In this document: positions 11,434-57,164 of the stretch, one piece after another
How positions within the stretch are numbered: the stretch's first letter is position 1
Layout: the number at the start of each line of letters is the position of its first letter
Assembly: GCF_020036995.1 (NCBI RefSeq)
Contig: NZ_JAIQDD010000010.1
Span: 97,433 to 161,432, forward strand
Reading direction: 5' to 3'
Source: Corallococcus sp. AS-1-12
GTDB lineage: Bacteria > Myxococcota > Myxococcia > Myxococcales > Myxococcaceae
Length of the DNA stretch: 64,000 nucleotides
Translations under genes and position numbers: made by a program
Notes under the pieces: generated by a model
The model's database searches: none
What the model was told of the DNA's origin: nothing
Seen by the model: only the letters and a program-made list of their open reading frames with translations

Positions 11434-12555
11434 TCAGGCCCCGGCGGCGCGCGCGGGCATGGGCTGGCCGTTCGCGTCGAGCTTCGCGCCCGTCCAGCGG
11501 TGGCTCTCCGCCTCCTCCATCATCTCCACCTCGCGGCGGATGCGGGCCCACTCCGTCTCCGGCAGGCCGAGGAACGCCTCCGCGAGCATCGGGTCGAACT
11601 GCGTGCCCGAGCAGCGGCGGACCTCGTCGCGCGCCACGCTCATGGGGCGCCCCTTGCGGTAGGGCCGGTCGGACGTGATGGCGTCCAGCGTGTCCACGAG
11701 GCAGAAGATGCGCGCCCCGATGACGATCTCCTCGCCCTGGAGCCCCAGCGGGTAGCCCTTGCCGTCCCAGCGCTCCTGGTGCTGCAGGACGATGAGCGCC
11801 GCCTCGTGCAGGTAGGGCATCTTCGCCAGCATCCGGTAGCCGAACTCCGGGTGCAGCTTCATCTCCACCCACTCATCCGGCGTGAGCGGCCCGGGCTTGA
11901 GCAGGATGGAGTCCCGCACGCCGATCTTCCCGATGTCGTGCAGGAGCGCGCCCTGCTCCACCACGTCCAGCGCCGGCCCGGTGAGGCCGATCTCCTGCGC
12001 CAGCCGCCGCGCGTACAGCGACACCCGCCGCGAGTGCCACTGCGTCTCCGTGTCCCGGTAGTCCAGCGCGCTGATGAGCCCGTCCAGCAGCCCCGTGGTG
12101 CGCTCGATGACCCGGCGCTCCAGCCCCTCGTTGATGGACAGGAGCTCCGCGTTCTTCTCCGCCACCTCGCGCGTCAGCCGCTCGTTGGCCGCCACCAGCC
12201 GGTGGTGCTCGATGGCCTGCCGCACGCTGCTGGTCAGCTCGCTCAGCGCCCACGGCTTGCCCAGCAGCCGGAAGACCTCGCCCCGGTTCACCGCCTCCGA
12301 CGCCGTCTTGAAGTCCGCCGCCGCCGTCAGCATCAGCCGCACCGCGCGGGGGTTCTTCTCCCGCAGCGCCGACAACAGCTCGATGCCGTTGAGGTACGGC
12401 ATCATGAAGTCCGTCAGCACGACGTCGAAGCCCTGCTCCCGCGCCGCCACCACCGGGTCGCTGTGCGTCACGACCTCGTAACCCTCCGCCTGGAGGATCC
12501 GGGACAGCGCGGCGAGGATGAGCACGTCGTCGTCCACCACGAGGATTCGGGCCAT
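11434..12555 (-). CDS. response regulator with HD-GYP phosphodiesterase domain
   Basis: Receiver domain (MARILVVDDDVLI...DFMMPYLNGIEL). HD-GYP motifs (LHDIGKIGV...; GYP-type HD domain). Confidence 0.85.
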   Translation of the reverse strand: MARILVVDDDVLILAALSRILQAEGYEVVTHSDPVVAAREQGFDVVLTDFMMPYLNGIELLSALREKNPRAVRLMLTAAADFKTASEAVNRGEVFRLLGKPWALSELTSSVRQAIEHHRLVAANERLTREVAEKNAELLSINEGLERRVIERTTGLLDGLISALDYRDTETQWHSRRVSLYARRLAQEIGLTGPALDVVEQGALLHDIGKIGVRDSILLKPGPLTPDEWVEMKLHPEFGYRMLAKMPYLHEAALIVLQHQERWDGKGYPLGLQGEEIVIGARIFCLVDTLDAITSDRPYRKGRPMSVARDEVRRCSGTQFDPMLAEAFLGLPETEWARIRREVEMMEEAESHRWTGAKLDANGQPMPARAAGA

Positions 12556-17070: not shown

Positions 17071-17526
17071 CTAGTTGCCTTCGCGCACGCCGATGGCGAG
17101 CTGCGCGAGCCCGGCCTTCTTCGCCAGCTCCATCACCTGCACCACGGTGCCGTGGGGGACGCCTTCGTCCGCCTGGACGATCACCACGGTGTCGGGGTTC
17201 TGGTTCTTCGCGGTGTCGAAGGCCTGCTTCAGCTCCGCTTCCGCGACGACGTTGCCCGCGAGCACGAAGCGGCCGTCCGCCAGCACCGCCACGGACAGGT
17301 CCGTGGTGCGCGCGGTGACGTCCGCGGCGCCGCCCTTGGGCAGGTTCACCTTGAGGCCCGCCTTCGCGCCGCCGCCCGGGCCCTGCTGGGTGATGACCGA
17401 GCTGGTCACCATGAAGATGATGAGCAGCACGAGCATCACGTCCGTCAGCGGCGTGATGTTGATCTCCGCGAAGCCCGCGCCCTCCACCTCGTCGTCGCCC
17501 GAGCCGGGCGTCTTTCCCATGGCCAT
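17071..17526 (-). CDS. exbD: ExbD/TolR biopolymer transport protein
   Basis: Single N-terminal TM helix (ITPLTDVMLVLLIIFMV) plus an ExbD periplasmic domain. Confidence 0.85.
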   Translation of the reverse strand: MAMGKTPGSGDDEVEGAGFAEINITPLTDVMLVLLIIFMVTSSVITQQGPGGGAKAGLKVNLPKGGAADVTARTTDLSVAVLADGRFVLAGNVVAEAELKQAFDTAKNQNPDTVVIVQADEGVPHGTVVQVMELAKKAGLAQLAIGVREGN

Positions 17527-17541
17527 GGTGGGCGTGTCTCC

Positions 17542-18273
17542 TTACGAGGCGGGCTGCGGATCCGGGCGGGGAGCGGGGGGCGGGGTGCTCTCGCGCGGGG
17601 GCGGCGTGGTTTCCGGCAGCGGGCCGCCGGCGGAGCGCTCCTTGAGGACCTCCGCGAACTCGTCGCCCAACAGGCGCAGCTCCACCAGCACGCGGGACAG
17701 CCGGGCCTGGAAGTAGTTGTAGAAGACCATCGCCTGCACGGCGACGAGGATGCCCACGGCGGTGGCGACGAGCGCCTCGGAGATGCCCGTCATCACGGCC
17801 GCGGAGCCGCCGGTGCCGCCGGCCTCCACGTCCACGCCCAGGTCCTTGAAGGAGCGCATGATGCCGGCCACGGTGCCGAAGAGGCCCACGAAGGGCGTCG
17901 TCGAGCCGATGGTGGCGAGCAGCCACAGGTTGCGGCGCAGCTTCAAGCCCACCTGGGCGCGCTCGCGCTCCACGGCGGACTCGATGCCGTTGCCGCCGCT
18001 GGAGCGGGAGCGCTCCCAGCGATCGAACCCGGCGAGGAAGATGTCGGCCGCCACGGCGTCGGAGCGCTCGGCGGCGGTGCGGGCGGCGGCCACGTCCCCC
18101 CGGAGGAGGTGCTTCTGGACGATCTCCCCCAGGTTGCGGGAGCGCTCGCTCACGCCCCAGAGGGCGATGAGCCGCTCGATGGCCACGCCCAGGGCCACCA
18201 CGGAGGCGCCCAGGAGGAGGGCGAGGGTGACGCCGCCCAGGCGAAGGTAATGAAGTAGATCGTTCAGGCTCAT
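17542..18273 (-). CDS. exbB: MotA/TolQ/ExbB proton-channel protein
   Basis: ExbB/TolQ signature (TIGSTTPFVGLFGTVAGIMRSF) with 3 TM helices. Confidence 0.85.
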   Translation of the reverse strand: MSLNDLLHYLRLGGVTLALLLGASVVALGVAIERLIALWGVSERSRNLGEIVQKHLLRGDVAAARTAAERSDAVAADIFLAGFDRWERSRSSGGNGIESAVERERAQVGLKLRRNLWLLATIGSTTPFVGLFGTVAGIMRSFKDLGVDVEAGGTGGSAAVMTGISEALVATAVGILVAVQAMVFYNYFQARLSRVLVELRLLGDEFAEVLKERSAGGPLPETTPPPRESTPPPAPRPDPQPAS

Positions 18274-18315
18274 GATGGATGACCGGGCAGGCGGCCCTGG
18301 CTCACACTAGGACAT

Positions 18316-19146
18316 ATGAACCGCGCAGCCGCCGCAATCTTCCTGGCCCTCCTCTGTTCGGCCTGCCCCAAACGTCTCGAGTTCGGTCCGGAGGGCCGCA
18401 TCGAGGACGCCCAGACGCTCTACCAGCACGTGCGCGAGCGGCAGGCGAAGGTGGTGAACCTGGAGGGCGACGCCAAGCTCCACGTGGACTCCCCGCAGGG
18501 CAGCGGCACGCTCTCCACCTATCTCTCCATCACCCGCCCGGCCCTCATCCACCTGGAGACGTACGACTTCTTCAACCGCCCGGTGGCCTCGCTCGTCTCC
18601 GACGGTGAGCGCTTCGGCATCTACCAGGCGCGGGAGAACACGTACCTCCAGGGCCCCGCGAGCGCGGAGAACGTGTCCCGCTTCCTGCCCGTCGTCCTGC
18701 CGAGCGAGGAGCTGGTGGCGGTGATGCTGGGCCAGGTCCCCCTCCTGCCGCCGGAGTCCATGACCCTGGAGCTGGACGAGAAGGAGCGGGTCTACGTGCT
18801 CAAGCTCCAGCGGGGGCCGGCGACACAGACACTGCGCGTGGACCCCAAGCACCTGCGCGTGGTGAAGAGCGAGGTCCGGGGCGTGCCGGGCTACGACCTG
18901 GCGTTCGAGGACTTCCAGCAGCGGGGCGACCAGTTCTTCCCGGACAAGGTGCACCTCATCGCCGCCTCGGCGGACACGAAGCTGGACCTGAAGTACACGG
19001 ACATCCGCCTCAACGGCCGCCCGGACCTGACGCTCTATGAAATGGGCGCGCCCGAGGGGGCGAAGGTGGTGGACGTCGACGCGCGGGGCCAGGAGGTCCG
19101 CCCGGAAGGGGCGGTGTCGCAGCCGCCCCCTGCGCCGGGTTCCTGA
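18316..19146 (+). CDS. lipoprotein, LolB/DUF4292-like (uncertain)
   Basis: Signal peptide plus lipobox (FLALLCSAC). Function is not assignable from motifs. Confidence 0.55.
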   Translation: MNRAAAAIFLALLCSACPKRLEFGPEGRIEDAQTLYQHVRERQAKVVNLEGDAKLHVDSPQGSGTLSTYLSITRPALIHLETYDFFNRPVASLVSDGERFGIYQARENTYLQGPASAENVSRFLPVVLPSEELVAVMLGQVPLLPPESMTLELDEKERVYVLKLQRGPATQTLRVDPKHLRVVKSEVRGVPGYDLAFEDFQQRGDQFFPDKVHLIAASADTKLDLKYTDIRLNGRPDLTLYEMGAPEGAKVVDVDARGQEVRPEGAVSQPPPAPGS

Positions 19147-19205
19147 GCTTCCAGGCGTCGAAAGGCAGCGTCCCGGCGCAAACCGGGTACTATGGCGCGC
19201 ACGAC

Positions 19206-19955
19206 ATGGCACAGATCAAGCTTGGAGAACTGCTGATCAAGGCGAACGTCCTGCAGGAGAGCCAGCTCAAGGCGGCGCTCGCCGAGCAGGCCAAGTGGGG
19301 CGGGAAGCTGGGCGAGATCCTCGTCCGGATGAACCTCGTCTCCGAGGACATCCTCGTGCGCGCCCTGTCGAAACAGTTGGGCATGCCGGCGGTGAACCTG
19401 GACTCCGTGCAGATGGTGCCGCCGCACGTGAAGGCCAAGATTCCGGCGCAGACGGCGCGCGACTTCTCCGTGGTGCCGCTGCAACTGCGCGACGACGGCA
19501 AGACGCTGGTCGTCGCCATGTCGGATCCGCTCAACGTGCGCGTGCTGGACGAGCTGCGCGCCCTGTCCAAGTGCCGCATCGTGGCCAACGTGGCCGGGCG
19601 CACCTCCGTGGCGCGGGCGTTCGCGCGCCTCTACGAGGAGACGGCGGAGCTGGAGGACGCGGACACCAACTTCAAGGTGGTGGACGCCCAAGGCCGCACC
19701 GTCGTGAAGAACCTCAAGGACCTGGACCCGGCCGCCGCCGTCGCCATGTCCCCCAAGCCCGCCGCCGCTCCGCCGCCCCGTCAGGCCCCTCCGCCGGAGG
19801 CGCCGCGCGCGGCCTCGGGCAGCCCCGCGGAGCTGCTCAAGAGCGTGGAGGAGGTCCAGCGCAAGGAGGTCGCGGCGCTGAAGGCCATGGTGGAGCTGCT
19901 CATCGAGAAGGGCGTTTTCTCCCGCGAGGAATACCTCGCCAAGGTCAAGCGGTAG
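19206..19955 (+). CDS. MshEN / GspE-N-terminal domain protein (predicted c-di-GMP receptor)
   Basis: Tandem MshEN motifs (KLGELLIKANVLQESQLKAALAEQ...KLGEILVRMNLVSEDILVRALSKQ). No ATPase domain. Confidence 0.75.
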   Translation: MAQIKLGELLIKANVLQESQLKAALAEQAKWGGKLGEILVRMNLVSEDILVRALSKQLGMPAVNLDSVQMVPPHVKAKIPAQTARDFSVVPLQLRDDGKTLVVAMSDPLNVRVLDELRALSKCRIVANVAGRTSVARAFARLYEETAELEDADTNFKVVDAQGRTVVKNLKDLDPAAAVAMSPKPAAAPPPRQAPPPEAPRAASGSPAELLKSVEEVQRKEVAALKAMVELLIEKGVFSREEYLAKVKR

Positions 19956-19964
19956 CCCCCGGCC

Positions 19965-20968
19965 ATGCGCAAGAAGATTGGTGAACTCCTCGTCCAGGCC
20001 GGAGTGGTGACGGACGAGCAGGTGAAGCAGGCCCTCGCGTCCGGACGGCGCGGCCAGGGCCGCAAGCTGGGTGAGGTGCTGGTGTCCATGGGCCTGTGCA
20101 CGGGCCGGGACATCGCGCGGGCGCTGGCGGCGCAGCACGAGCTGCCGTTCGTGGAGATCCCCGAGTACATCCCCCATGCGGTGTCCTCGCTGGTGTCCAT
20201 GGACTTCCAGACCGAGCACCGGGTGCTCCTCTTCGCGGCGGAGCAGGACGGCCGCAGCGAGAAGATCCACGTCGCGGTGGAGGACCCGGGCAACCTGATG
20301 CTGGTGGACGAGCTGCGCTTCCAGCTTCGCAAGCCGCTGAAGGTGTTCGTCGCCGCGCCGGATGACCTGGAGCAGGCGTTGTCGCGCGGCCGGGGCGAGC
20401 CCCTGGACATCGTGGAGGCTGAACCGATGGACATGGACGAGGACGATTCGCCGGACATCCTGACGTCTCCGCCGCCCCCGCCCGCCGCCGCGCGCGCGCC
20501 CACGCCGCCGCGTCCGCCCGCGCCGGCGCTGGACTGGGACCTGCCGCCGCCGCCGCCCAACGAGTCGGGCGTGGACGGCGCGGAGGTGCTGGAGGACATC
20601 CTGGGCTCCACGCCCCGTCCCAAGGTCCCCAAGGCCCCGCGTCCGCCGCCCCCGCCCGCCGCGGCCCGTCCGCCGCCGCCTCCGCCCCCCGCGGAGCCGG
20701 AGGACCCGAGCAAGCCGCGCGTCCCGGTGGTGCTCTTCGGCGGCGCCGCGCAGGGCGTGAAGCCGTCCGTGGCGCTCACGCCCAAGCCGGACTTCTCCGA
20801 GGAGGACCTGGCGGTGCTGGACGACATCGACCGCATCTCGCGCGGCGAAGAGGCCAGCCTGGACACGGAGAAGGTGAAGCCCGCGCGCATGGTCGCGAGC
20901 CTCATCCGCCTGCTCATCCGCAAGGGGCTCATCCAGGAGGCGGAGTTCCTGGAGGAGCTGGCCCAGAA

Positions 20969-20972
<4 letters not shown>
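19965..20972 (+). CDS. MshEN / GspE-N-terminal domain protein with Pro-rich linker (paralog)
   Basis: [24 protein letters not shown]...[24 protein letters not shown]. Conserved C-terminal helix shared with the upstream paralog ([13 protein letters not shown] versus LIEKGVFSREEYL). Confidence 0.75.
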
Positions 20973-21996
<1,024 letters not shown>

Positions 21997-22000
<4 letters not shown>

Positions 22001-23052
22001 GCGAGCCGCTGGTCCAGGTGCGCGACCTGAAGGTGCACTTCCCGGTGAAGGGCGGCCTGCTGGGCCGCACGCGCGGCACGGTGCGCGCGGTGGACGGCGT
22101 GTCCTTCGACGTCGCCCGGGGCGAGACGCTGGGCCTGGTGGGGGAGAGCGGCTGCGGCAAGAGCACCCTGGGGCGCGCGGTGCTGCGCCTCATCGACCCG
22201 ACCTCCGGCTCCATCCGCGTGGCCGGGCGCGAGCTGACCGGCCTGTCGCAGCGCGAGCTGCGTCCGCTGCGCCGCCAGATGCAGCTCGTCTTCCAGGACC
22301 CGTACGCGTCGCTCAACCCGCGCATGACGGTGGGGGACATCCTCGCGGAGCCCTTCGCCATCCACGGCCTGGCGAAGGGCAGGGCGCGCGAGGACGAGGT
22401 GCTGGCGCTGCTCGACGCCATGGGGCTGCCCCGCGAGGCGCGCCAGCGCTACCCGCACGAGTTCTCCGGCGGCCAGCGTCAACGCATTGGCATTGCACGT
22501 GCCATCGCGTTGCGTCCAGACCTGGTGGTGGCGGATGAGCCCATCAGCGCGCTGGACGTCTCCATCCAGGCGCAGATCGTCAACCTGCTGGTGGACCTGC
22601 AGCGCGAGCGCGGCCTCACCTACGTCTTCATCGCGCACGACCTGAAGATCGTCGAGTACGTGTCCACGCGCGTGGCGGTGATGTACCTGGGGCGCATCGT
22701 GGAGGTGGCGCCGTCGCGGGCGCTGTACGCCGGGCCTCGCCACCCGTACACGCAGGCCCTGCTGTCCGCGGTGCCGGTGCCGGATCCGGAGCGCCCCGGC
22801 ACGCGCCTGCTGCTGCCGGGAGAGCCGCCTTCGCCCCTGTCGCCGCCGTCCGGTTGCGCGTTCCATCCGCGCTGCCCGCATGCGATGGAGCGCTGCCGCC
22901 GCGAGTCACCGCCGCTGTATCCCCTGGGCGGTGGCCACGCCGCGGCGTGCTTCCTGGCCGAAGGGGATTCGCGCGACGTACAGGACGGGCCCGCCGTTTC
23001 CGCGTCCGGAGGAGGTGCCGGTGTTCTGGCTCAGCCATCATCACGCGGATGA
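21997..23052 (+). CDS. ABC transporter ATP-binding protein, OppF/DppF-like
   Basis: Walker A (GESGCGKST), signature (FSGGQRQR), Walker B ([12 protein letters not shown]). ATGA overlap with the OppD-like gene. Confidence 0.85.
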
Positions 23053-23428
23053 GTACAACCGCACGTACGTGCTCGCGGGCGTGCGCGTGTGCGCGCGGTG
23101 CCTGGGCACGTACCCGGTGCTCGCGGGCGTGTTCCTCGCGTTGTTCGCGCTGAAGGCGCCGCTGCGGTGGGAGTGGGACGTGCCGGCGGTGCTGGCCCTC
23201 ACGCTGCCCGCGCTCGTGGACTGGGCGGTGGGACGCTTCCGGCCCGCTTCGGGTTCCAACGCGGTGCGCACGCTGACGGGCGTCCTGCTGGGAGTGGGGC
23301 TCGGCCGCTCGCTGTACGTGCATGTGCAGCGCCCGTTGCCGGCGGTGCTGCTGGCGCAGGCACTTCTGGTGACAGGGGTGGCGGTCCCTGTCATTCTCGC
23401 CACTTACCGGCGGCCACGGCCGGAATAG
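23021..23428 (+). CDS. DUF2085-like small membrane protein
   Basis: CARCLGTYP motif typical of DUF2085. 3-4 TM helices. GGAGGAGG RBS 5 nt upstream of GTG 23021. Confidence 0.5.
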
Positions 23429-23459: not shown

Positions 23460-24140
23460 GTGGGCGGTGAAGGGGATGGCACCCGTGGCTTCATGGGCAC
23501 TGGGGGAAGTTTGGCACCCGAAACCTCAGACGAGCAGTTGATGCTCGCCTTCCAGGCGGGAAACGCGCGTGCGTTCGAAGCGTTGGTGCGCAAGCACCGC
23601 GCGCCGGTGTTCAACTTCATCCTGCGCTTCGTGGGCCACCGGGCGCGGGCGGAGGACGTGCTGCAGGAGACCTGGCTCAAGGTGGTCCGCAGCGCCCGGG
23701 AATACGAGCCCAAGGCCCGGTTCACGACCTGGCTGTACACCATCGCGAGGAACCTCTGCGTGGACAGCACGCGCAAAGAGAGCTACCGCCAGGCGACGTC
23801 CCTGGAAGCCCCCTCGGCGGGTGCCGACGGCGACGAGGGACGTCCGCTGGGCGAGGGGCTGCCGGATGCCGGGGCCAGCCCGGAGCGCGGCGCGCACAAC
23901 GCCCGCCTCCGGCCCCTGCTGGAGCGGGCCCTGTCGGCCCTGCCGGAGGAGCAACGCGAGGTGTTCGTGCTGCGCGAGTACAGCGGCATCCCGTTCAAGG
24001 AGATCGCCGAGGTGACGGGCGTGTCCGAGAACACGGTGAAGAGCCGCATGCGCTACGCGCTGGAGGGCCTGCGCCGCCGCCTGGGTGAGCTGGGCGTGGA
24101 CGGCGACCTGTCGGAGGATGGAAGGACGGTGGCGGGATGA
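23460..24140 (+). CDS. ECF (sigma-70 family group IV) sigma factor
   Basis: Region 2 (FEALVRKHRAPVFNFILRFVGHRARAEDVLQETWLKV) and region 4 (EQREVFVLREYSGIPFKEIAEVTGVSENTVKSRM). Confidence 0.85.
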   Translation: MGGEGDGTRGFMGTGGSLAPETSDEQLMLAFQAGNARAFEALVRKHRAPVFNFILRFVGHRARAEDVLQETWLKVVRSAREYEPKARFTTWLYTIARNLCVDSTRKESYRQATSLEAPSAGADGDEGRPLGEGLPDAGASPERGAHNARLRPLLERALSALPEEQREVFVLREYSGIPFKEIAEVTGVSENTVKSRMRYALEGLRRRLGELGVDGDLSEDGRTVAG

Positions 24141-25558
24141 ATGCCCAGAATGCCCACGCGCACGAGGACCGGCTCCTCGACTTCGCCTACGGCGAGCTCC
24201 CCGCGTCGGAGGCCCACGCGCTGGAGCAGCACGTCCAGGGCTGCGCGCGCTGCACGAAGGCGCTGGCGGACATCCGCGGCGTGCGCACCGCCATGGCGCA
24301 GTTGTCCTCGGAGCCCGCGCCGGACGCGGGCCTGGAGTCGCTGCTCGCGTACGCGCAGCAGTCCGCGCGCCGCGCCGCCGCCGGCCCCGAGCCGAAGCCC
24401 TCGCGCTGGCGCCGCTTCCTCTTGCCCGCGGTGGGCCTGGCCACGGTGGGCACCTTCGGCCTCCTGACGTTGACGGTGCGCGAGAACCTCGACCTGTCGC
24501 CGAACCTGTCACAGCGGGCCGCCCCCAGCGCGGCGATGGAGGCGGCGAAGGTCGCCCCCGTCGCCCCGGCCCCCGCGCCGTCGAGCGCGCCCCTCGAAGG
24601 GGACGCACCCGAGGGCGGCTCGGAGGCCCTGGCGGCCGCGCCGGGCGCGATGGAGCTCAACCGCAATCAGATGGAGACCAAGGCCCAGCGCAAGGGCACC
24701 GCCGCGGCCCGCCCGTCGGACTGGATGAACGCGGGCAGCGGGGGCGCGCTGCTGGAGCGCCGCGCGGACGCGGAGGCTCCGAAGAAGAAGGTGGCCAAGG
24801 CCGTCCGGGACGCGGACGGCGAGTTCGCCGCGCTCGAGCCGCCTCCGGCCGCGCTGGAGGCGCCGTCGAAGGAAGCGGAGGCCCATGACAGCTTCCTCGC
24901 GAAGGACGAGCCCGCGCGGGGGCGCGCCTCGGCCAAGGTCAGCGACAAGGCGCTGGCCACGAAGGGCGACTCCCTCCGGTTGGGTGAGGCGGCCTATGGC
25001 CGTGGGCTCGTCTCGGATGACGCAGAGGACACGTCCGCGAGCGCGCCTCCGCCGCCGCCTCCTCCCGTTGCCTCCGCGCCCGTGGTGCAGGCCGTGCCCA
25101 TGGCCCCCGCGAGCGTGGGCTCCATCGGCGGTGCGTCGCCGCCGTCCACGCGCGCTCCCGCCGCGCCCAAGGAGGAGTCCGCCCGGGCCGAGGCCGCGAA
25201 GCCCGCTCCCATGGAGAAGTCCGCGTCCCAGGAGGCGATGACGGCGCGCGACCTGTCCGCCCAGGCCCAGGCCGCCGCGAACCAGGGTGACCGCGCCCGG
25301 GAGGCACGGCTGCTGCGCGCCGCGCTCGCGGCCGGAGCCAGCGGCAGCGAGAGGCTGGCCCTGCTCTCACGGCTCTGCGAGTCCGAGTCCGCCCAGGGCC
25401 GGACCCGGGAGGCCGCCGCCGTCTGCGGGCAGATCATCAAGGAGGCCCCCGGCTCCAGCGCGGCGCAGCTCGCCCAGCGCCGCCTGCGTCAGGCCTCGCC
25501 CCCCACGGCGCCGGCGTCCGCGCCGGCCAAGGCCGCTCCTTCCCAGCCCGCGCAGTAG
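24137..25558 (+). CDS. anti-sigma factor (zf-HC2 N-terminus, single TM, long Ala/Pro-rich periplasmic domain)
   Basis: ATGA overlap with the sigma gene. HxxxC...CxxC zinc-finger anti-sigma motif (HALEQHVQGCARCTKAL). TM segment (FLLPAVGLATVGTFGLLTLTV). Confidence 0.75.
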   Translation: MNAQNAHAHEDRLLDFAYGELPASEAHALEQHVQGCARCTKALADIRGVRTAMAQLSSEPAPDAGLESLLAYAQQSARRAAAGPEPKPSRWRRFLLPAVGLATVGTFGLLTLTVRENLDLSPNLSQRAAPSAAMEAAKVAPVAPAPAPSSAPLEGDAPEGGSEALAAAPGAMELNRNQMETKAQRKGTAAARPSDWMNAGSGGALLERRADAEAPKKKVAKAVRDADGEFAALEPPPAALEAPSKEAEAHDSFLAKDEPARGRASAKVSDKALATKGDSLRLGEAAYGRGLVSDDAEDTSASAPPPPPPPVASAPVVQAVPMAPASVGSIGGASPPSTRAPAAPKEESARAEAAKPAPMEKSASQEAMTARDLSAQAQAAANQGDRAREARLLRAALAAGASGSERLALLSRLCESESAQGRTREAAAVCGQIIKEAPGSSAAQLAQRRLRQASPPTAPASAPAKAAPSQPAQ

Positions 25559-25576: not shown

Positions 25577-25879
25577 ATGACCGATGCGGCCGGGGCCCGG
25601 GTCCTGGATAATGGGGACATGACGTCGGACGTGCACGCTCCCCCCGTGAACAGCCCCCGGAAGTCGCCGCCGCGCTCCCCGCGCCGGGCCCGCCGTGGCC
25701 AGGCCATGGTGGAGTACTCGATGATCAACTGGGTGTTGATCGTCGGGCTCGTCATCGGCGCCACGGTGAAGATCCGCTGGACGGACGACCGGCAGACCAA
25801 CGTCATCGACCTGTTCCTCGAGGCGTATCAGATTTATTACGACTCGTTTTACTTCGTGCTGAACCTGCCGTTCCCCTGA
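25577..25879 (+). CDS. candidate Flp/Fap-family prepilin
   Basis: GXXXXEY Flp processing motif (G-QAMV-EY) followed by a hydrophobic stretch (SMINWVLIVGLVIGATV). The predicted mature part is short (~57 aa). It lies immediately upstream of cpaB-tadB-tadC. Confidence 0.5.
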   Translation: MTDAAGARVLDNGDMTSDVHAPPVNSPRKSPPRSPRRARRGQAMVEYSMINWVLIVGLVIGATVKIRWTDDRQTNVIDLFLEAYQIYYDSFYFVLNLPFP

Positions 25880-25991: not shown

Positions 25992-26021
25992 TTGACACCC
26001 GATGTGGGGCATGGCTAACAT
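25992..26021 (+). promoter_or_regulatory. sigma-70-like promoter candidate upstream of cpaB
   Basis: TTGACA, an 18-nt spacer, then TAACAT, located ~90 nt upstream of the CpaB start. Confidence 0.3.
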
Positions 26022-26111: not shown

Positions 26112-26930
26112 ATGTTGAAGGGTAAGACCCCGCTCGTCGTCGCACTGGTGCTCGGTTTGCTCGCGGGCATCGTGGCCTACTCGGCCATCAAGAAGAAGGA
26201 ATCGGATGTGCGCCGCGGGTGGAACCTGGTGCCCGTGGTGGTGGCGGGCCAGGACATGCCCGAGGGTTCGGTCATCACGTACGAGATGATCTCCCAGCGC
26301 TCCGTGCCGGAGCAGTTCGTCACCTCGTCGGTGGTGAAGCCGGACTCCGCCAACTACATCGTGAACCAGAAGGTGCTGGTGGCGCTGCAGGCCGGCGACC
26401 CCATCCTCTGGAGCCAGTTCGAGACGACGAAGGCCGCCGAGCGCCTGTCCACGAAGGTGCAGAAGAAGGCGCGCGCCATCACCATCGAGGCGAAGCAGAC
26501 CACGTCCGTGGGCGGGTGGATCCGCCCGAACGATCACGTGGACATCATCGGCACGTTCCGCGATCCGCAGACGGACGAGAGCGTCGCGGTGACGCTGCTG
26601 CAGAACATCATCGTGGTCGCCACGGGCAAGATCACCGGCACCACGAACATCAACCTCATCCCGGAGAACCAGCGCGAGTACTCCAACGTCTCGCTGATGG
26701 TGCTGCCGGAAGAGGCGGAGATCCTGGTGCTGGCGGCGGAGCTGGGGCAGTTGACCCTGTCCCTGCGCAACGAGGACGACGTGGACCTCATCGAGGAGCG
26801 TGGCCGCGCGACCATCAGCACGCTGCTCTCCGGTGAGCGCACCCGCGTGCTGGAGCAGAAGCGCCGGGAGATCATCCAGATCATCAAGGGCAGTGGCGGC
26901 GGCGAGAAGGCCTCGGCCGGAGCTCCGTAG
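26112..26930 (+). CDS. cpaB: Flp pilus assembly protein CpaB/RcpC homolog
   Basis: N-terminal TM (LVVALVLGLLAGIVAY) plus an SAF/CpaB periplasmic domain. Confidence 0.85.
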   Translation: MLKGKTPLVVALVLGLLAGIVAYSAIKKKESDVRRGWNLVPVVVAGQDMPEGSVITYEMISQRSVPEQFVTSSVVKPDSANYIVNQKVLVALQAGDPILWSQFETTKAAERLSTKVQKKARAITIEAKQTTSVGGWIRPNDHVDIIGTFRDPQTDESVAVTLLQNIIVVATGKITGTTNINLIPENQREYSNVSLMVLPEEAEILVLAAELGQLTLSLRNEDDVDLIEERGRATISTLLSGERTRVLEQKRREIIQIIKGSGGGEKASAGAP

Positions 26931-26942
26931 TCGTCGCGCGCG

Positions 26943-26971
26943 GGGCCGCTTCGCCAACGCTGAAGCGGCCC
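26943..26971 (+). other. intercistronic stem-loop between cpaB and tadB
   Basis: Perfect 10-bp stem GGGCCGCTTC/GAAGCGGCCC with a 9-nt loop and no U-tract. Confidence 0.4.
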
Positions 26972-27008
26972 TGCCGACCCCTCCCTCATCCCCCGGGGAT
27001 TCGCGCCC

Positions 27009-27854
27009 ATGCTCGCAGGTATCGTCCTCCTTCTCGTCACCGGCTCGGTGTTCTTCTTCAGCCTGGTGATCTTCAGCGTCCTGTCGAAGGCGTATGAGCA
27101 GTACCAGGAGCGCTACGTCGCCAAGTCGATGAACGACTTGAGCGACATGTTCCTCTTCATCGACGCGCGGCAGATGTTGATCCTCAACATCGCCTGCATG
27201 TGCCTTCTGGGCATCCTCAGCTACATCATCTTCAACCCCATCCTGGCGGTGCTCGCGACCATCTTCGGCTTCTTCCTGCCGATGCTGCTCGTGAAGCACT
27301 ACCGCAAGCGCCGCATCAAGAAGTTCAACGTGCAGTTGGTGGACGCGCTGCAGGCCATGGCCAACGCGTTCAAGGCGGGCCTCACGTTCCCGCAGGCCAT
27401 CGAGCACGTGGCGCGCGAGGCGCTGCCGCCCCTGTCCCAGGAGTTCGGCCTCTTCGTGAAGGAAGTGAAGCTGGGCGTGCCGCTGGAGGAGGCGCTCATC
27501 AACATGGGCCGCCGCGTGGGCAGCGACGACCTGGAGCTGGTGGTGGTGTCCACCAACATCGCGCGCCAGTTGGGCGGCAACATGGCGGAGATGTTCGAGA
27601 CCATCTCCACGGTGATCCGCGAGCGCTTCCGTCTGGAAGGCAAGATCGACGCGCTGACGTCCCAGGGCAAGCTTCAAGGCTGGATCGTGGCGGCCATGCC
27701 GGCGGTGCTGGGCATGGTGCTCAACTACATGCGTCCGGACCTGATGGAGCCGATGATGAACCACATCTTCGGCTACATCCTGGTGACCCTGATCGCCATC
27801 ATGGAGATCATGGGCATCCTCATCATCCGGCGCATCGTCAACATCGACATCTGA
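27009..27854 (+). CDS. tadB: TadB-like platform protein (T2SS-F/GspF family)
   Basis: T2SSF-type domain with 3 TM segments (GLTFPQAIEHVAREALPPLSQEFG...). Confidence 0.8.
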   Translation: MLAGIVLLLVTGSVFFFSLVIFSVLSKAYEQYQERYVAKSMNDLSDMFLFIDARQMLILNIACMCLLGILSYIIFNPILAVLATIFGFFLPMLLVKHYRKRRIKKFNVQLVDALQAMANAFKAGLTFPQAIEHVAREALPPLSQEFGLFVKEVKLGVPLEEALINMGRRVGSDDLELVVVSTNIARQLGGNMAEMFETISTVIRERFRLEGKIDALTSQGKLQGWIVAAMPAVLGMVLNYMRPDLMEPMMNHIFGYILVTLIAIMEIMGILIIRRIVNIDI

Positions 27855-27867
27855 AGCGAGGCGCACC

Positions 27868-28758
27868 GTGCAGGAAGTCCTGACATTTCTGCTGATGGGC
27901 GGCTCGGCACTGCTGACCGCGGGCGCGGTGGCGTTCCTGGGCATCGGCCTGTACACCAACCTCCTGGAGCGCTTCCTCACGGAAGTCCGCGACGAGTCCG
28001 CGGGCGGCATGAAGGGCGCGGGCTCCGTCGCCATCCGCAAGCTGGGCGCGATGAACCGGCGCTTCATGTGGCCGGGCTACGAGTCCAAGACGCGCCGCAA
28101 GCTGATCAAGGCGGGCGAGCCGTCCCAGTACAAGCCCGAGGACATCATGGCGCTGCAGGAGGTGAGCGCCTTCCTGGGCCTGCTGGTGGGCCTGTTCGTC
28201 GCCAACGGCATCGGGGCGAACCTGGCGTGGTCGCTGCTGGTGATGCTGCTGGGCCTGTTCTATCCGCTCATCTGGTTGAACGACCAGGTGAAGCGCCGTC
28301 ACCTGGCCATCAGCCGCGCGCTTCCGTACAACCTGGACCTGCTGACGCTGTCGGTGGAAGCGGGCATGGACTTCACGGGCGCGCTGGCGAAGGTGGTGGA
28401 GAAGGGCCGCCAGGGGCCGCTGCGCGAGGAGCTGCAGTTGGTGCTCAAGCAGCTCAAGATGGGCAAGACGCGTGAAGAGGCGCTCAAGGGCATGATCGTG
28501 CGCGTGGACCTGCCGTCGCTGACGACGTTCGTCACGGCGCTGATCCAGGCGGACAAGATGGGCACGAGCCTGGGCAAGGTGCTGCGCATCCAGTCCACGC
28601 AGATGCGCATCGACCGCACGCAGCGCGCGGAGAAGCTGGCGGGTGAGGCACCGGTGAAGATGCTCTTCCCGCTCATCGCGTGCATCTTCCCGACGGTGTT
28701 CATGGTGCTCTTCGGGCCCATCGTGTTCCAGTTCATGTTCGGCAACGTCGGGGGCTAG
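27868..28758 (+). CDS. tadC: TadC-like platform protein (T2SS-F/GspF family)
   Basis: T2SSF-type domain (LPYNLDLLTLSVEAGMDFTGALAKVVEKG). Confidence 0.8.
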   Translation: MQEVLTFLLMGGSALLTAGAVAFLGIGLYTNLLERFLTEVRDESAGGMKGAGSVAIRKLGAMNRRFMWPGYESKTRRKLIKAGEPSQYKPEDIMALQEVSAFLGLLVGLFVANGIGANLAWSLLVMLLGLFYPLIWLNDQVKRRHLAISRALPYNLDLLTLSVEAGMDFTGALAKVVEKGRQGPLREELQLVLKQLKMGKTREEALKGMIVRVDLPSLTTFVTALIQADKMGTSLGKVLRIQSTQMRIDRTQRAEKLAGEAPVKMLFPLIACIFPTVFMVLFGPIVFQFMFGNVGG

Positions 28759-28831
28759 TCCTCTGCCCATCCTGCTCACCATCACCCAGGGGCTCCAGGT
28801 TGGACGGGAGCTCGCCTTCGAGCAGGCCGAA

Positions 28832-31663
28832 GTGAAGATCGGCCGGACCTCGGAGAACGACCTGGTCCTGCATGACCACGGTGTCTCCCGGCGTCATGCC
28901 CGCATCACGGCGAGGGATGGGCGTTACTTCGCCGAGGACGTTGGCAGCGCGAACGGCACGCAGTTGAACGGCCAGCCGCTGGGCGGCCAGAAGCAACTGC
29001 GCGACGGCGACCGCATCACCGTGGGGCCGGTGGAGTTCACCTTCGTGTGGGTGGCGCCGGAGGATGACGACGACGTCACCCGGCCCATCCGGCGGATGCT
29101 CGCGCCGCCGCACGCGAAGGTGTCGCCGCAGGGCGTGGAGCAGGCCTCGCTCGCGGAGATCGAAGCGGCGCCCACGAGCTACCAGCCGTCGATGCCGGCC
29201 ATGGCCCGGCCCGCGTCCCCGCCGCGCCCGGGAATGGCCGTGCCCGCCGCGAAGGGTGGGGCGATGCCAATGCCGGCCGCCACGCCGAAGCGGCCCTCCG
29301 CTCCGGATCTACCGGCGGTCAGTGCCTCCGCGCCGGGCCGGGCTGCACCGGGAACTCCCGTGCTGGGAACGCCCACGCCGGGGGCGGCGGCTTCGCCCAA
29401 GCCTGGTGTGCAGGGAGCCTCTGTTCCGGCGACTCCGCCCCGGCCTCCCTCGGGTCCGCCTGCGCTGGGCGCCTCTGCGTCCTCTGCTTCGGGCAAGGTT
29501 CCCGCCGCGCCTTCCGTGGTGGGGAGCCTGGGGCAGGGCGCGACCGCGCCGGCCAGGACTCCCGCGGGCCCTCCGGTGTTGGGTCCCGCGGCTCCCAACG
29601 AGGGTTCCCCGGCCAGGGCTCCTGCTGCTCCCCCGGTGCTGTCGGCCGGGAACAAGGCCTCGGGAGCTTCCGCCGCCGTCCGTGCCTCCGGGCCGGGACC
29701 GTCCTTGGCGGCCCGGGGCGCAGCGGCTTCGTCACCCGGCCTGCCGTTGATGTCTCCGCCGGGGCTGATGGTTCCGCCTCCTCCCGCACGGCCTCTCGCC
29801 GTGCCTCCTCCCGTGGAGCTGGCCCCCGTGGCGCCGGACGAGCCCGAGGAGCGCACGCTGATGGCGATCTCCACGGTGGACTCGCCCGTGCCCGCCGCCA
29901 CGCCGCCTCCCGTGCTGTCCCTCCCGGACATGGACGAGCCCGAGGAGCGCACGCTGATGGCGATCTCCACGGTGGACTCGCGCGTGCCCGCCGCCGCGCC
30001 GCCTCCCGTGCTGCCTCTCCCGGAGCTGGACGAGCCCAACGAGAGCACGCTGATGGCGATTCCCACGGCGGACCTGGCCGTGCCCGCCGCCACGCCGCCC
30101 CCGGTGCTCTCCTTCCCGGAGCTGGACGAGCCCGAGGAGCGCACGCTGATGGCGATTCCGGCGACCCCGGAAGCGCCACCGGTTCCCGTCGCGCCGCCGC
30201 CGCAGGAGGCCCCGCCCGCGCTGCCCCCGCCGGCGATGGAGGAGCCCGAGGAGCGGACCGTCCTCGACCTCCGGCCCATCACGCCGGTCAAGCCGCTCGT
30301 GGCCCCTCCGGTGCGCATCGTGAGCGCGCCCGCCGCCGCGATCGACTCCAGCGAGCCCTCGACCTTCGTCGGCCAGGACGATGACCTCTCCGCGGCCCCC
30401 GAGGAGACCCGGGCCTCCGGGACCTTCTCGGGCCAGGTCTCGCCCGGACCTGCCGCACCGGCCGCGGCGCCTCCGCCGGTCTGGAGCCCTCCCGTCCCGC
30501 CGCCTTCCGAGGAGCCGGTGACGTTCGTCGGCCACGACCGCGCCCCGCCTGCCCCGGCCCTGGACCCCGGGCTGCTGACGGGCGAAATCCCACTGCTGGC
30601 CCATGTGCCCGCTCCGGACGCGGAGGGTGAAGCCACCCTGCCCGTGCCGGCCAACCTGGATGAGTCCGCCACCCAGCCCGCGCCAAGGGGCCCGGTGACG
30701 GTCGTCGCGAAGGTCGAGCCCTCGTCCGCCGCCGACAAGGCCCGCCAGCGGCGCCAGTTGGGCAAGACGCTCAAGGGCCGGTTCCTCCTCTTCTGGCAGC
30801 GCCAGTCGCTGCCCAGGCGCATCGGCTTCGCGTCGCTGGCGGGCGTGGCCGTGCTGGGCGTGCTGACGCTGCTCGTGGCGCTCGCGGCCCCCTCGGCCAT
30901 CCGGCTCCCGGGCCGCGAACCCTTCACGCTGGGCATGGAGCCGGTGCCGGACTCCTTCGGCCTGGGCGAAGGGGTGCGCTGGGTCCACGCCGACGACAAG
31001 CTCTTCGACTTCCGCTTCGTGTCCCCCACGCGCGCCGTGGCGGTGCTGCACTACCAGGCCAGCAACATCGCCCGGGACGAGGTCAACCTGTCCCTCAACG
31101 GCGTGTCCCTGGGCTGGGTGCCCCCGGATACCGCCCAGACGGCCGAGCGTGAGCTGGAGCAGGTCCTCCCGCCCAGCCTCCTGCGGCGCAACGCCAACAA
31201 CCAGCTCCTCTTCGACAACGCCCTCAACCCGCCCGGCCGCGACCCCTGGCGCATCTGGAACCTGCGGCTGGAGATCATCCCGGTGCCGGAGCTGCCGCCG
31301 GATCAGCTCATCACCTCCGCCCGGGAGGCCGCCAAGGCAGGGGCCCGCTTCTACGAGCTCAAGGACGTGGGCGCGGAGAACCTGTTCAAGGCGTGGCGGG
31401 AGTACCGCGCCGCGTGGATCACCCTGGAAGCGCTGGACGACAAGCCGGAGCTCTACGAGGACGTCCGGGAGCGGATCGCCCAGATTTCAACGGAGCTGGA
31501 CCACCGCTGCAGCCAACTGATGATGCAGTTCCAGCGGGCGGTTCAGTTCCGCAGCCGACGGGATGCGGTCGCCACCCTGGAAGACGTACGGAGACGCTTC
31601 CCTACGGCCGAGCATCGCTGCCACAATCTCGCGCTGGAAAAAGCCTATGAGCACGAGCTTTAG
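28832..31663 (+). CDS. FHA-domain protein, large proline-rich, with internal 32-aa tandem repeats
   Basis: FHA core (IGRTSENDLVLHDHGVSRRHARI...ANGTQLNGQPL). The first canonical start (GTG 28832) would truncate the FHA beta1 strand, which is encoded in-frame upstream (PILLTITQGLQVGRELAFEQAE). The true start is likely non-canonical at ~28763-28769. Confidence 0.8.
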   Translation: MKIGRTSENDLVLHDHGVSRRHARITARDGRYFAEDVGSANGTQLNGQPLGGQKQLRDGDRITVGPVEFTFVWVAPEDDDDVTRPIRRMLAPPHAKVSPQGVEQASLAEIEAAPTSYQPSMPAMARPASPPRPGMAVPAAKGGAMPMPAATPKRPSAPDLPAVSASAPGRAAPGTPVLGTPTPGAAASPKPGVQGASVPATPPRPPSGPPALGASASSASGKVPAAPSVVGSLGQGATAPARTPAGPPVLGPAAPNEGSPARAPAAPPVLSAGNKASGASAAVRASGPGPSLAARGAAASSPGLPLMSPPGLMVPPPPARPLAVPPPVELAPVAPDEPEERTLMAISTVDSPVPAATPPPVLSLPDMDEPEERTLMAISTVDSRVPAAAPPPVLPLPELDEPNESTLMAIPTADLAVPAATPPPVLSFPELDEPEERTLMAIPATPEAPPVPVAPPPQEAPPALPPPAMEEPEERTVLDLRPITPVKPLVAPPVRIVSAPAAAIDSSEPSTFVGQDDDLSAAPEETRASGTFSGQVSPGPAAPAAAPPPVWSPPVPPPSEEPVTFVGHDRAPPAPALDPGLLTGEIPLLAHVPAPDAEGEATLPVPANLDESATQPAPRGPVTVVAKVEPSSAADKARQRRQLGKTLKGRFLLFWQRQSLPRRIGFASLAGVAVLGVLTLLVALAAPSAIRLPGREPFTLGMEPVPDSFGLGEGVRWVHADDKLFDFRFVSPTRAVAVLHYQASNIARDEVNLSLNGVSLGWVPPDTAQTAERELEQVLPPSLLRRNANNQLLFDNALNPPGRDPWRIWNLRLEIIPVPELPPDQLITSAREAAKAGARFYELKDVGAENLFKAWREYRAAWITLEALDDKPELYEDVRERIAQISTELDHRCSQLMMQFQRAVQFRSRRDAVATLEDVRRRFPTAEHRCHNLALEKAYEHEL
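29837..30220 (+). repeat. 4 (+1 partial) tandem 96-bp coding repeats inside the FHA gene
   Basis: Unit gacgagcccgaggagcgcacgctgatggcgatctccacggtggactcg... encodes EPEERTLMAISTVDSPVPAATPPPVLSLPDMD. Units start at 29837, 29933, 30029 and 30125. Confidence 0.8.
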
Positions 31664-31690
31664 GGCTCGTGCCCCCCTCAGCAGGACGCG

Positions 31691-43967: not shown

Positions 43968-43972
43968 CCCGC

Positions 43973-46708: not shown

Positions 46709-46761
46709 CATAATCAGGTCGCCCCGCTCCCGACGGAGCAGGCGCTGGCGAGGATCACCTC

Positions 46762-47103
46762 ATGGCACAGGGTGAAACGGGCATCATTGGCAAGGGCATC
46801 GTCATCAGGGGCAACCTCACGGGCGGAGGGGACCTGGTCATCGAGGGGCGCGTGGAGGGGCAGATCGCCCTGAAGAACCACCTCACCATCGAGGGCACCG
46901 GCAAGGTGCAAGCGGACATCCGCGCCGAGGAACTGACCATCAACGGCGAGGCGAGCGGCAACATCGACGCCTCCACGCGCGTGGCCATCAACGCCTCGGC
47001 GAAGGTCGCGGGCGACATCAAGGCCCCGCGGGTCATCATCGAGGACGGCGCCGTGTTCAACGGCTCCATCGAGATGGACGTGAAGTTGCCGGACGACATC
47101 TAG
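46762..47103 (+). CDS. bacN: bactofilin
   Basis: Bactofilin (DUF583) beta-helical repeats. First of three tandem bactofilin genes followed by a ParB-like gene. Confidence 0.8.
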   Translation: MAQGETGIIGKGIVIRGNLTGGGDLVIEGRVEGQIALKNHLTIEGTGKVQADIRAEELTINGEASGNIDASTRVAINASAKVAGDIKAPRVIIEDGAVFNGSIEMDVKLPDDI

Positions 47104-57089: not shown

Positions 57090-57164
57090 GCGGGAATAGC
57101 TCAGCGGTAGAGCATCGCCTTGCCAAGGCGAGGGTCGAGGGTTCAAATCCCTTTTCCCGCTCCA
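57090..57164 (+). tRNA. tRNA-Gly (GCC), CCA-encoded
   Basis: Cloverleaf read directly: acceptor GCGGGAA/TTCCCGC, anticodon loop TTGCCAA, T-loop TTCAAAT. Confidence 0.9.

Follow-up and report, generated by a model that had tools for sequence, protein, structure and literature searches.

Two free-standing MshEN proteins, predicted receptors of cyclic di-GMP, encoded with Opp/Dpp-like ABC ATPases upstream of Kil cluster II in Corallococcus

The MshEN domain, which binds cyclic di-GMP (c-di-GMP) in the ATPase MshE of Vibrio cholerae, also occurs in proteins without an ATPase, a class that is established because FrgA of Myxococcus xanthus and PA3740 of Pseudomonas aeruginosa carry MshEN together with a non-enzymatic region (Wang 2016). 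This study concerns a pair of such proteins, here named Msh1 and Msh2, encoded by the open reading frames (ORFs) 19206-19955 and 19965-20972 on the forward strand of a 64,000-nucleotide (nt) stretch of the genome of Corallococcus sp. AS-1-12 (contig NZ_JAIQDD010000010.1, positions 97,433 to 161,432); this whole stretch is called the window, and coordinates refer to it. Based on synteny and on the 86% identity of Msh1 to the M. xanthus DK1622 protein P0051, they are orthologues of MXAN_4667 and MXAN_4666, their closest described relatives, whose lengths of 251 and 338 amino acids (aa) match, and of STAU_5448 and STAU_5447 of Stigmatella. Both of these pairs appear in the MshEN table and alignment of Wang 2016, which reported up to 22 MshEN genes in M. 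xanthus and fusions of MshEN to many non-ATPase domains, and the two MXAN proteins are among the 17 M. xanthus MshEN proteins of Kuzmich 2022, according to which expression of both genes is seen during growth and drops mildly in development. The main texts searched do not mention MXAN_4661-4668 and report no function of MXAN_4667 or MXAN_4666, and no literature combining MshEN with oligopeptide or ATP-binding cassette (ABC) terms was found. At the level of domain prediction the pair is already catalogued; new here are a third hairpin, a conserved module of the MshEN pair with ABC ATPases, and the embedding of this module in an opp operon in relatives.

FrgA and PA3740 are likened to the pair by description; they differ in having motility or development phenotypes and in genomic contexts that are not known to include ABC ATPases. 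V. cholerae MshE (5HTL) shares with Msh1 and Msh2 the tandem 24-residue motifs, the four-helix bundle and the MshEN_C part (TM-score 0.75 for the Msh2 model), and its Gly and Leu positions are conserved in both proteins, while Gln closes both motifs of Msh1 and only motif II of Msh2. However, MshE is fused to a T2SSE ATPase, which Msh1 and Msh2 lack, and these differ from it further in Lys for Arg at position 1, in the Asn turns of Msh1, and in the Gly end and longer spacer of Msh2. The best c-di-GMP-bound structural match, the GSPII-B domain of Thermus thermophilus PilF (8PDK), also has Lys at position 1 of motif I, but is one of three tandem domains in a pilus ATPase and has neither a disordered tether nor a terminal hairpin. 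Cyclic-dinucleotide control of an ABC transporter ATPase is known from OpuCA, whose CBS domains bind c-di-AMP. For the explanation preferred below this is a functional analogy, a second messenger gating an ABC importer via a sensor at the ATPase; there the nucleotide and the sensor fold are different and the sensor is fused to the ATPase, whereas the Msh sensors are separate polypeptides that would have to interact with it.

The domain identity of Msh1 and Msh2, their orthology and the structure of their operon are the firm part of the analysis. The two genes and their parts are as follows:
19206-19955 (+): msh1, coding for a 249-aa standalone MshEN protein, orthologue of MXAN_4667
19218-19376 (+): MshEN_N of Msh1, the predicted c-di-GMP site, with K5...Q28, the spacer AKWGG and K34...Q57
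19377-19646 (+): MshEN_C alpha/beta subdomain of Msh1 (Pfam PF05157, residues 58-147)
19647-19823 (+): linker of Msh1, a conserved DADTNFKVVDAQGRTV stretch followed by a Pro/Ala-rich disordered segment
19824-19955, including the stop codon (+): C-terminal helix-turn-helix of Msh1 (...KAMVELLIEKGVFSREEYLAKVKR), a predicted degenerate third MshEN_N-type hairpin
19965-20972 (+): msh2, coding for a 335-aa standalone MshEN protein, orthologue of MXAN_4666
19974-20135 (+): MshEN_N of Msh2, with K4...G27 (Gly replacing Gln), a six-residue spacer and K34...Q57
20136-20393 (+): MshEN_C subdomain of Msh2 (Pfam PF05157, residues 59-141), modelled with a predicted local distance difference test score (pLDDT) above 90
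20394-20798 (+): disordered Pro-rich linker of Msh2, containing the conserved VPVVxFGGAAQG stretch
20799-20972, including the stop codon (+): C-terminal helices of Msh2 including the hairpin, from the AlphaFold2 (AF2) model, profile comparison and conservation

Both genes lie on the same strand and in the same frame, with 9 nt between the msh1 stop and the msh2 start, and their GC content at third codon positions (0.90 for msh1, 0.94 for msh2) is that of genuine genes of a 72% GC genome; the long antisense ORFs are the usual high-GC artefacts. Database records identical to both proteins exist (Corallococcus WP_223741404.1 and WP_223741405.1). Msh1 and Msh2 are 32% identical across 140 aa (E 2e-15) and thus paralogues. 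Both match Pfam PF05157, MshEN (E 5e-15 for residues 58-147 of Msh1 and 5e-13 for residues 59-141 of Msh2, the MshEN_C part), as well as NCBIfam NF053729, ‘cyclic di-GMP-binding domain, MshE-related’, in which residues 4/5-57 score 64.8 bits for Msh1 and 58.5 bits for Msh2 against a cut-off of 38 bits. Sequence matches in the PDB were to PilF, PilB and MshE 5HTL (E 2e-10 and 2e-11). The Pfam and NCBIfam scans found neither T2SSE nor any other ATPase domain in the two proteins, and their matches to PilB and GspE models span only the N-terminal 85-150 positions of those models; the NCBI name ‘general secretion pathway protein GspE’ is therefore a misnomer. An earlier note, made from the sequence alone, had proposed two free-standing MshEN paralogues without an ATPase, to be recognised by T2SSE_N/MshEN models, and this description is borne out.

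The same note had described a motif ending in Gln and repeated twice in both proteins. In Msh1 this is what is found: motif I is K5-L-G-E-L-L-I-K-A-N-V-L-Q-E-S-Q-L-K-A-A-L-A-E-Q28 and motif II is K34-L-G...Q57, separated by the five-residue spacer AKWGG. In Msh2, motif I is K4-I-G...A-L-A-S-G27, the spacer is RRGQGR, and motif II is K34-L-G...Q57, so that the closing Gln is present in motif II only. The Gly and Leu-class positions are kept in both proteins. In particular, Gly occupies position 3 in all four motifs (G7 and G36 in Msh1, G6 and G36 in Msh2) and is invariant across 69 Msh1 and 50 Msh2 orthologues, and the hydrophobic positions 2, 17 and 21 are L6, L21, L25, L35, L50 and L54 in Msh1 and I5, V20, L24, L35, I50 and L54 in Msh2. 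Taken literally, the relaxed regular expression of Wang 2016 matches neither protein, each motif being one position off, with Asn at both turn positions of Msh1, and Cys at the motif II hydrophobic position and Gly at motif I position 24 of Msh2.

Across the 69 Msh1 orthologues, Leu 2, Gly 3, Leu 17, Leu 21 and Gln 24 are invariant or nearly so, and the spacer has five residues in every one (69/69); the N-terminal 62 residues are almost invariant family-wide and include every residue whose mutation weakens binding in V. cholerae MshE. The 50 Msh2 orthologues have spacers of 6-8 residues and differ at position 24 of motif I, with Gln in 27 of them, Lys in 10 and Arg in eight; the Gln is replaced in Corallococcus and Myxococcus and kept in Archangium and several uncultured lineages. 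In V. cholerae MshE, substitution of G11 or G40 abolishes binding and L10A costs 36-fold, with changes at R9 or Q32 costing fivefold or less. The PilF GSPII-B domain binds at 6 nM with its native Lys at position 1 and at 150 nM in the K167R mutant, and Lys at this position is therefore not a defect. Single Gln-to-Glu mutants of GSPII-B still bind, with dissociation constants (Kd) of 0.5-1 uM, whereas PilF GSPII-A does not bind; for this reason binding is rated as likely for Msh1 and uncertain for Msh2. The suggestion that both are c-di-GMP receptors is thus reasonable as a prediction, with a strong case for Msh1 and a weaker one for Msh2: Msh1 can be expected with good confidence to bind the nucleotide, and for Msh2 the prospects are evenly balanced. 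Msh1 would bind with an affinity in the sub-micromolar to micromolar range, and Msh2 of Corallococcus and Myxococcus less tightly.

The AF2 model of Msh2 is confident over residues 1-143 (pLDDT 75-95, with 75-93 in MshEN_N), has no secondary structure over residues 144-278, where pLDDT is mostly below 60, and ends in helices at 279-292, 305-319 and 325-334. A Foldseek search with the N-terminal 140 residues of Msh2 gave TM-scores, normalised to target length, of 0.74-0.76 to c-di-GMP-bound PilF GSPII-B (8pdk), to 8pfa and to MshE 5HTL (E 6e-9 to 7e-8). The fold search was run with the Msh2 model only, because the N-terminal bundle of Msh1 was modelled at low confidence. The Msh1 model is confident in MshEN_C (pLDDT about 90 or higher at roughly residues 60-140), falls below 50 at residues 146-156 and 173-211, and has helices at 207-234 and 240-248.

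A variable linker, Pro-rich in the second protein, had also been noted earlier, correctly: Pro makes up 31% of residues 144-278 of Msh2, and the same fraction of residues 175-206 of Msh1, which contain 34% Ala. Both linkers include short conserved stretches, the invariant columns being L149, A152, D153, N155-V158, D160 and G163-T165 in Msh1 and P254, V255 and F258-A262 in Msh2. Msh2 orthologues vary in length from 292 to 1835 aa, and the giant Msh2 orthologues of 769, 834 and 1835 aa match no Pfam domain besides MshEN; the linker between the MshEN head and the hairpin is therefore extremely variable in length. Msh2 orthologues of 765-1835 aa are found at loci L076 (10754-16261), L077, L064, L067, L068 and L078.

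The two proteins share a C-terminal motif, LIEKGVFSREEYL in Msh1 with a counterpart in Msh2. The motif was known from the earlier reading as a short conserved helix; it is real, but forms a helix-turn-helix that is better called a degenerate MshEN_N-type hairpin. Profile-profile comparison aligned the two C-termini with a probability of 96% (E 1e-9), and hhalign aligned the profile of both C-termini with the profile of the 24-residue half-motif, in register with positions 4-23, with a score of 22.7 and a probability of 89%; 200 column shuffles scored 7.8 on average (standard deviation 2.0, maximum 14.9) and the reversed sequence 6.9. By these profiles the hairpin is a third, degenerate copy of the MshEN half-motif. 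Its head is A-M-V in Msh1 and S-L-I in Msh2 instead of [RK]-L-G, and so the hairpin alone should not bind nucleotide. It is nearly invariant among Msh1 orthologues and persists, down to 34-40% identity, in Msh1-like proteins of 230-290 aa that form more than 100 clusters at 50% identity. Since two MshEN hairpins make a four-helix bundle, pairing of the Msh1 and Msh2 hairpins with each other, or of either with itself, would be a reasonable idea, and the two proteins may act together, pairing or oligomerising through their C-termini. A SHOCT domain, considered for the C-terminal motif, was rejected, as a Pfam scan of the isolated C-termini with E up to 10 gave no SHOCT match.

The pair heads an operon of msh1, msh2, ABC1, ABC2 and the genes for a DUF2085 protein, an extracytoplasmic function (ECF) sigma factor and an anti-sigma factor, which abuts Kil (Tad-like) cluster II. 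The features around the pair are:
18316-19146 (+): DUF4292/LolB-like lipoprotein gene, directly upstream of msh1 (Pfam DUF4292, E 6e-15)
19188-19193 (+): -10-like hexamer TACTAT, 12 nt before the msh1 ATG, read from the sequence
20969-22000 (+): ABC1, OppD/DppD-like ABC ATPase (Pfam ABC_tran and oligo_HPY), its start overlapping the msh2 stop (GTGA)
21997-23052 (+): ABC2, DppF/OppF-like ABC ATPase, with an ATGA overlap with ABC1
22880-23428 (+): DUF2085 predicted membrane protein (Pfam DUF2085, E 1.4e-9), overlapping the 3' end of ABC2
23460-24140 (+): ECF-type sigma factor (Pfam Sigma70_r2 and r4_2), at the MXAN_4662 position
24137-25558 (+): zf-HC2 anti-sigma factor (Pfam zf-HC2, one predicted transmembrane segment), at the MXAN_4661 position

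Overlapping junctions join msh2 to ABC1, ABC1 to ABC2, ABC2 to the DUF2085 gene and, by ATGA, the sigma gene to the anti-sigma gene, whose product has a weak NCBIfam anti-sigma match; the DUF2085 gene probably starts later than the annotated ORF. In both ABC1 and ABC2 the Walker A, Walker B and signature motifs are intact, and the C-terminal oligo_HPY region contains four clustered Cys residues. The best NCBIfam matches of ABC1 are DppD/OppD, below the cut-off, and ABC2, at 413.4 bits, passes the cut-off of 408 for a dipeptide ABC transporter ATP-binding subfamily. Upstream of msh1 lie the DUF4292 gene, which scores 47.1 bits with NCBIfam LolB1_Flavo (cut-off 50), and a divergently transcribed ExbB/ExbD pair (both within 17071-19146); ExbB/ExbD genes stand beside the DUF4292 gene in the family of the window and in the distant locus L082.

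The loci of Corallococcus, Myxococcus and Pyxidicoccus share a TAnnnT hexamer at the same distance from msh1, as do many loci of uncultured lineages. No -35 match was found upstream of msh1, where a consensus promoter scan made no call. The position of the hexamer implies a near-leaderless msh1 transcript, which fits the strong transcription start 5 nt upstream of MXAN_4667, at the head of a predicted seven-gene operon MXAN_4667-4661 (Kuzmich 2022). A terminator-like site inside msh1 (19897-19914) is at chance level (two found, 2.1 expected), and Rfam gave no riboswitch or other RNA element near the locus. In the Archangium and Cystobacter-type loci L026-L044 the -10-like element lies about 45 nt upstream of msh1, with the conserved leader GGGTCCGTTCGGACTCC; this may be a lineage-specific regulatory leader, unlike the near-leaderless arrangement of Corallococcus and Myxococcus.

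A family scan with one genome per species gave 80 loci, all in Myxococcaceae or Archangiaceae, with Msh1 identities from 100% down to 52%. Essentially all loci of sufficient length have the order DUF4292 gene, msh1, msh2, ABC1, ABC2, DUF2085 gene, and in most sufficiently long loci the ECF sigma gene follows the DUF2085 gene, down to 52% Msh1 identity. The mean column identity among orthologues is 77% for Msh1 and 51% for Msh2. About 18 loci of uncultured lineages have an SBP_bac_5 gene, encoding a substrate-binding protein, and two permease genes between the DUF4292 gene and msh1, the pair lying between oppC and oppD of a complete importer operon; in L064 and L066-68 the msh1 ATG seems to share nucleotides with the stop codon of oppC. 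On a rough neighbour-joining tree without support values the cultured genera are surrounded by a paraphyletic grade of permease-bearing loci, and the outgroups lack permeases; this topology tentatively suggests a single gain of the permeases followed by their loss in the lineage that includes the window.

An exhaustive search recovered distant Msh1-like homologues, and ten of their loci were looked up. A DUF4292-like gene lies upstream in six of the ten (35-46% identity; L081, L085, L087, L089 and L082 are named), and a second, longer MshEN gene directly downstream in four. A Dpp/Opp/Nik-type ABC ATPase is encoded in three (L081, the P0374 locus and L090), with three further contigs ending earlier, so that the order of an msh gene followed by an ABC ATPase gene recurs in homologues of 35-40% identity; no Tad genes were seen around these in the available sequence. 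L081 reads msh1, ABC ATPase, ECF sigma factor and a 392-aa protein, the sigma factor being 51% identical to that of the window. A rule of one Msh protein per ATPase was considered and dropped, since L081 combines a single MshEN gene with a single ATPase gene, whereas at the P0374 locus only one ATPase gene can be seen beside two MshEN genes.

The explanation preferred here, tentatively and with a little less than even confidence, is that Msh1 and Msh2 sense c-di-GMP in the cytoplasm and cooperate with the Dpp/Opp-type ATPases translated along with them. Each consists of a complete MshEN head (a 53-54-residue four-helix bundle, which in MshE and PilF grips a single c-di-GMP, plus MshEN_C), a Pro/Ala-rich disordered tether with short conserved stretches, and the C-terminal helix-turn-helix, and the heads would dock on the ABC ATPase pair and make its activity dependent on c-di-GMP. 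Where relatives have retained oppABC in the operon, such docking would control the import of peptides. In Corallococcus and Myxococcus, whose loci lack permease genes, signalling is the likelier output, and it would run through the DUF2085 protein and the ECF sigma and anti-sigma factors towards the neighbouring Kil pilus genes. The chain, each step of which we infer, would lead from c-di-GMP through Msh1 and Msh2 to the ATPases and DUF2085, from these to the sigma and anti-sigma factors, and from there to kil expression. The ABC ATPases are favoured over the Tad machine as direct partner because their codon overlap with the pair is the tightest and the linkage the deepest, reaching homologues of 35-40% identity; among the candidate partners of the earlier note the Opp-like ATPases should therefore rank first. 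Gene neighbourhood makes them a plausible direct partner, a step short of probable, and on the same kind of evidence an influence of the msh module on Kil is rather unlikely.

Several observations weigh against this explanation. With regard to binding, both Msh1 motifs have Asn instead of Gly at the helix turn, and the four N-terminal helices of Msh1 are predicted with pLDDT of only 41-57; motif I of Msh2 ends in Gly and is followed by a six-residue spacer, and PilF GSPII-A, with His at the closing position and a degenerate motif II, fails to bind c-di-GMP. With regard to partners, no substrate-binding protein or permease gene accompanies the Opp/Dpp-like ATPases anywhere in the 64-kb window, L081 has no msh2, L082 has msh1 followed by a DUF2085 gene and a TadE-like gene with no ABC ATPase, and three of the ten distant homologues stand in unrelated contexts. 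The hairpin is kept in homologues without an msh2 neighbour, which argues against obligatory heterodimerisation. Finally, the M. xanthus sigma gene MXAN_4662 has a second, constitutive internal transcription start 66 nt upstream (Kuzmich 2022), and because of this promoter the operon is not a single obligatory unit.

The earlier note had suggested c-di-GMP control of the adjacent Tad-like machine through the free-standing receptors. In this model they would act directly on the machine, with KilG, KilH, the FHA proteins or the FHA-fused ATPase KilF, encoded elsewhere, as possible targets; what MshE/PilB-type ATPases have in cis, the MshEN module, would then be provided in trans by the pair. The machine itself is present as described from 26112 onward, as the orthologue of M. 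xanthus Kil cluster II (MXAN_4648-4661):
26112-33439 (+): Kil (Tad-like) cluster II core (Pfam RcpC, T2SSF twice and FHA twice), in the order of MXAN_4652-4648
26112-26930 (+): KilB/CpaB
27009-27854 (+): KilG/TadB
27868-28758 (+): KilH/TadC
28832-31663 (+): FHA protein
31691-33439 (+): FHA-TPR protein

Between the HD-GYP gene and Kil cluster II, M. xanthus has its genes in the same order, except that eight genes (MXAN_4653-4660, including the pilins KilK/L/M) separate the anti-sigma gene from kilB there and a single pilin-like ORF does so in Corallococcus. This ORF (25577-25879, +) encodes 100 aa with a Flp/TadE-type prepilin motif (RRG|QAMVEYSMINWVLIVGLVIG), and a sigma-70-like TTGACA-18-TAACAT site lies just upstream of kilB (25992-26021). 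Direct action on the Kil machine is in keeping with the position of cluster II immediately downstream on the same strand, with KilB/G/H genes within 10 kb after the operon in Corallococcus and in L035, L053, L061, L062, L065, L069-71 and L073, with the TadE-like gene of L082, and with the docking of the homologous N-domain of GspE/PilB on GspL or PilZ (Foldseek matches 4pht and 7lko); the signal that triggers Kil assembly on prey contact is also described as unknown in the Kil papers. On the other hand, at least five genes lie between the pair and the first Tad gene, the loci of Archangium and Cystobacter have the downstream pilin-like gene on the other strand, and distant homologues keep the ABC ATPase and DUF4292 genes with no Tad genes in the available sequence. 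Pfam and NCBIfam found no Tad family match in Msh1 or Msh2, whose orthologues are not among the listed genes of Kil clusters I and II, which end at MXAN_4661, and the Kil papers searched mention neither c-di-GMP nor MshE, no literature linking c-di-GMP to the Kil system having been found. Control of the machinery by c-di-GMP is thus not supported in the form first proposed, adjacency being the only link and the overlapping genes being those of the ABC ATPases, and direct action on it is judged improbable. The Kil link is real but looser, consisting in same-strand adjacency in many family members and in the anti-sigma gene of the msh operon, MXAN_4661, which is counted as the last gene of Kil cluster II (Seef 2021).

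In Streptomyces, RsiG-WhiG is an established case of a sigma factor controlled by c-di-GMP by way of a helical anti-sigma protein. By analogy, c-di-GMP-loaded Msh proteins could attach to the anti-sigma factor at its cytoplasmic zf-HC2 domain, or else to the sigma factor, and thereby determine the transcription of a sigma regulon that may include kil genes. Apart from this precedent, the idea draws on the place of the sigma and anti-sigma genes in the same predicted M. xanthus operon, on the ECF sigma gene after the module in most long family loci, and on L081, where msh1, ABC ATPase and a related sigma factor are repeated. Against it, the M. xanthus sigma gene has its own constitutive start, L082 and the P0374 locus show no adjacent sigma gene in the available sequence, several Archangium-type loci have 1-5 kb inserted between the DUF2085 and sigma genes, and the genes that overlap the pair are the ATPases and not the sigma gene. 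A direct sigma switch therefore appears as unlikely as direct action on Kil.

Least probable is that one or both proteins, most plausibly Msh2, have lost c-di-GMP binding and serve as protein-protein docking modules only, as the MshEN folds of Xanthomonas XpsE/GspE or PilF GSPII-A would illustrate: the documented non-binding domains of XpsE, Dgeo_0263 (domain III) and PilF GSPII-A, the Gly at motif I position 24 and varied spacers of Msh2, its much faster evolution and the literal mismatch of both proteins to the relaxed expression are set against the near-invariant N-terminus of Msh1 with all binding-relevant MshE residues, NF053729 scores well above the cut-off, the persistent binding of the GSPII-B Gln-to-Glu mutants, and the tolerance of proven binders for Lys at position 1 and for hydrophobic substitutions.

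Two c-di-GMP-related genes that the earlier note had placed in the window were also confirmed. The HD-GYP regulator at 11434-12555 (-) is a receiver and HD-GYP (HD_5) protein at the position of MXAN_4675, one of six HD-GYP proteins of M. xanthus. The supposed degenerate GGDEF kinase at 41454-43967 (+) is an 837-aa GAF-HisKA-HATPase-REC protein with a partial GGDEF match, followed by a gene for a large TPR protein (43964-45859, +); as size and synteny fit, these are orthologues of SgmT (MXAN_4640, 836 aa) and MXAN_4639. An identity with TmoK was ruled out for the former, the published table giving TmoK as MXAN_4445 and SgmT as MXAN_4640. Elsewhere in the window, a protein with a ParB_N domain is encoded at 48274-49644 (+), and 1.2 kb upstream of its gene stands a bactofilin gene (46714-47103, +); two tandem tRNA-Gly(GCC) genes at 57090-57164 and 57195-57269 (+) have identical Rfam scores.

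MshEN proteins are more numerous in myxobacteria than in the other groups examined, with 17-22 in M. xanthus, and almost all of their roles are unassigned. In the present locus, two probable c-di-GMP sensors, two permease-less ATPases and a sigma/anti-sigma pair are encoded immediately upstream of the genes for the Kil platform, in an arrangement conserved in the family. It is a long shot that the pair and the two ATPases form an undescribed c-di-GMP-gated ABC module with MshEN sensors in trans, paired by way of a vestigial third MshEN hairpin, acting as an upstream input to the Kil predation pilus, either via DUF2085 and the ECF sigma/anti-sigma pair or, in the lineages keeping oppABC, via imported prey peptides. 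If this is true, the module would couple contact-dependent killing to the level of c-di-GMP and to the sensing of nutrients or prey. If the ATPases are the targets of Msh1 and Msh2, this would be a new route of c-di-GMP control over an ABC system; if they are not, the pair stays an ordinary, catalogued member of the standalone MshEN class. In either case the locus offers a testable lead, in a tractable model organism, on how c-di-GMP might reach the Kil system.

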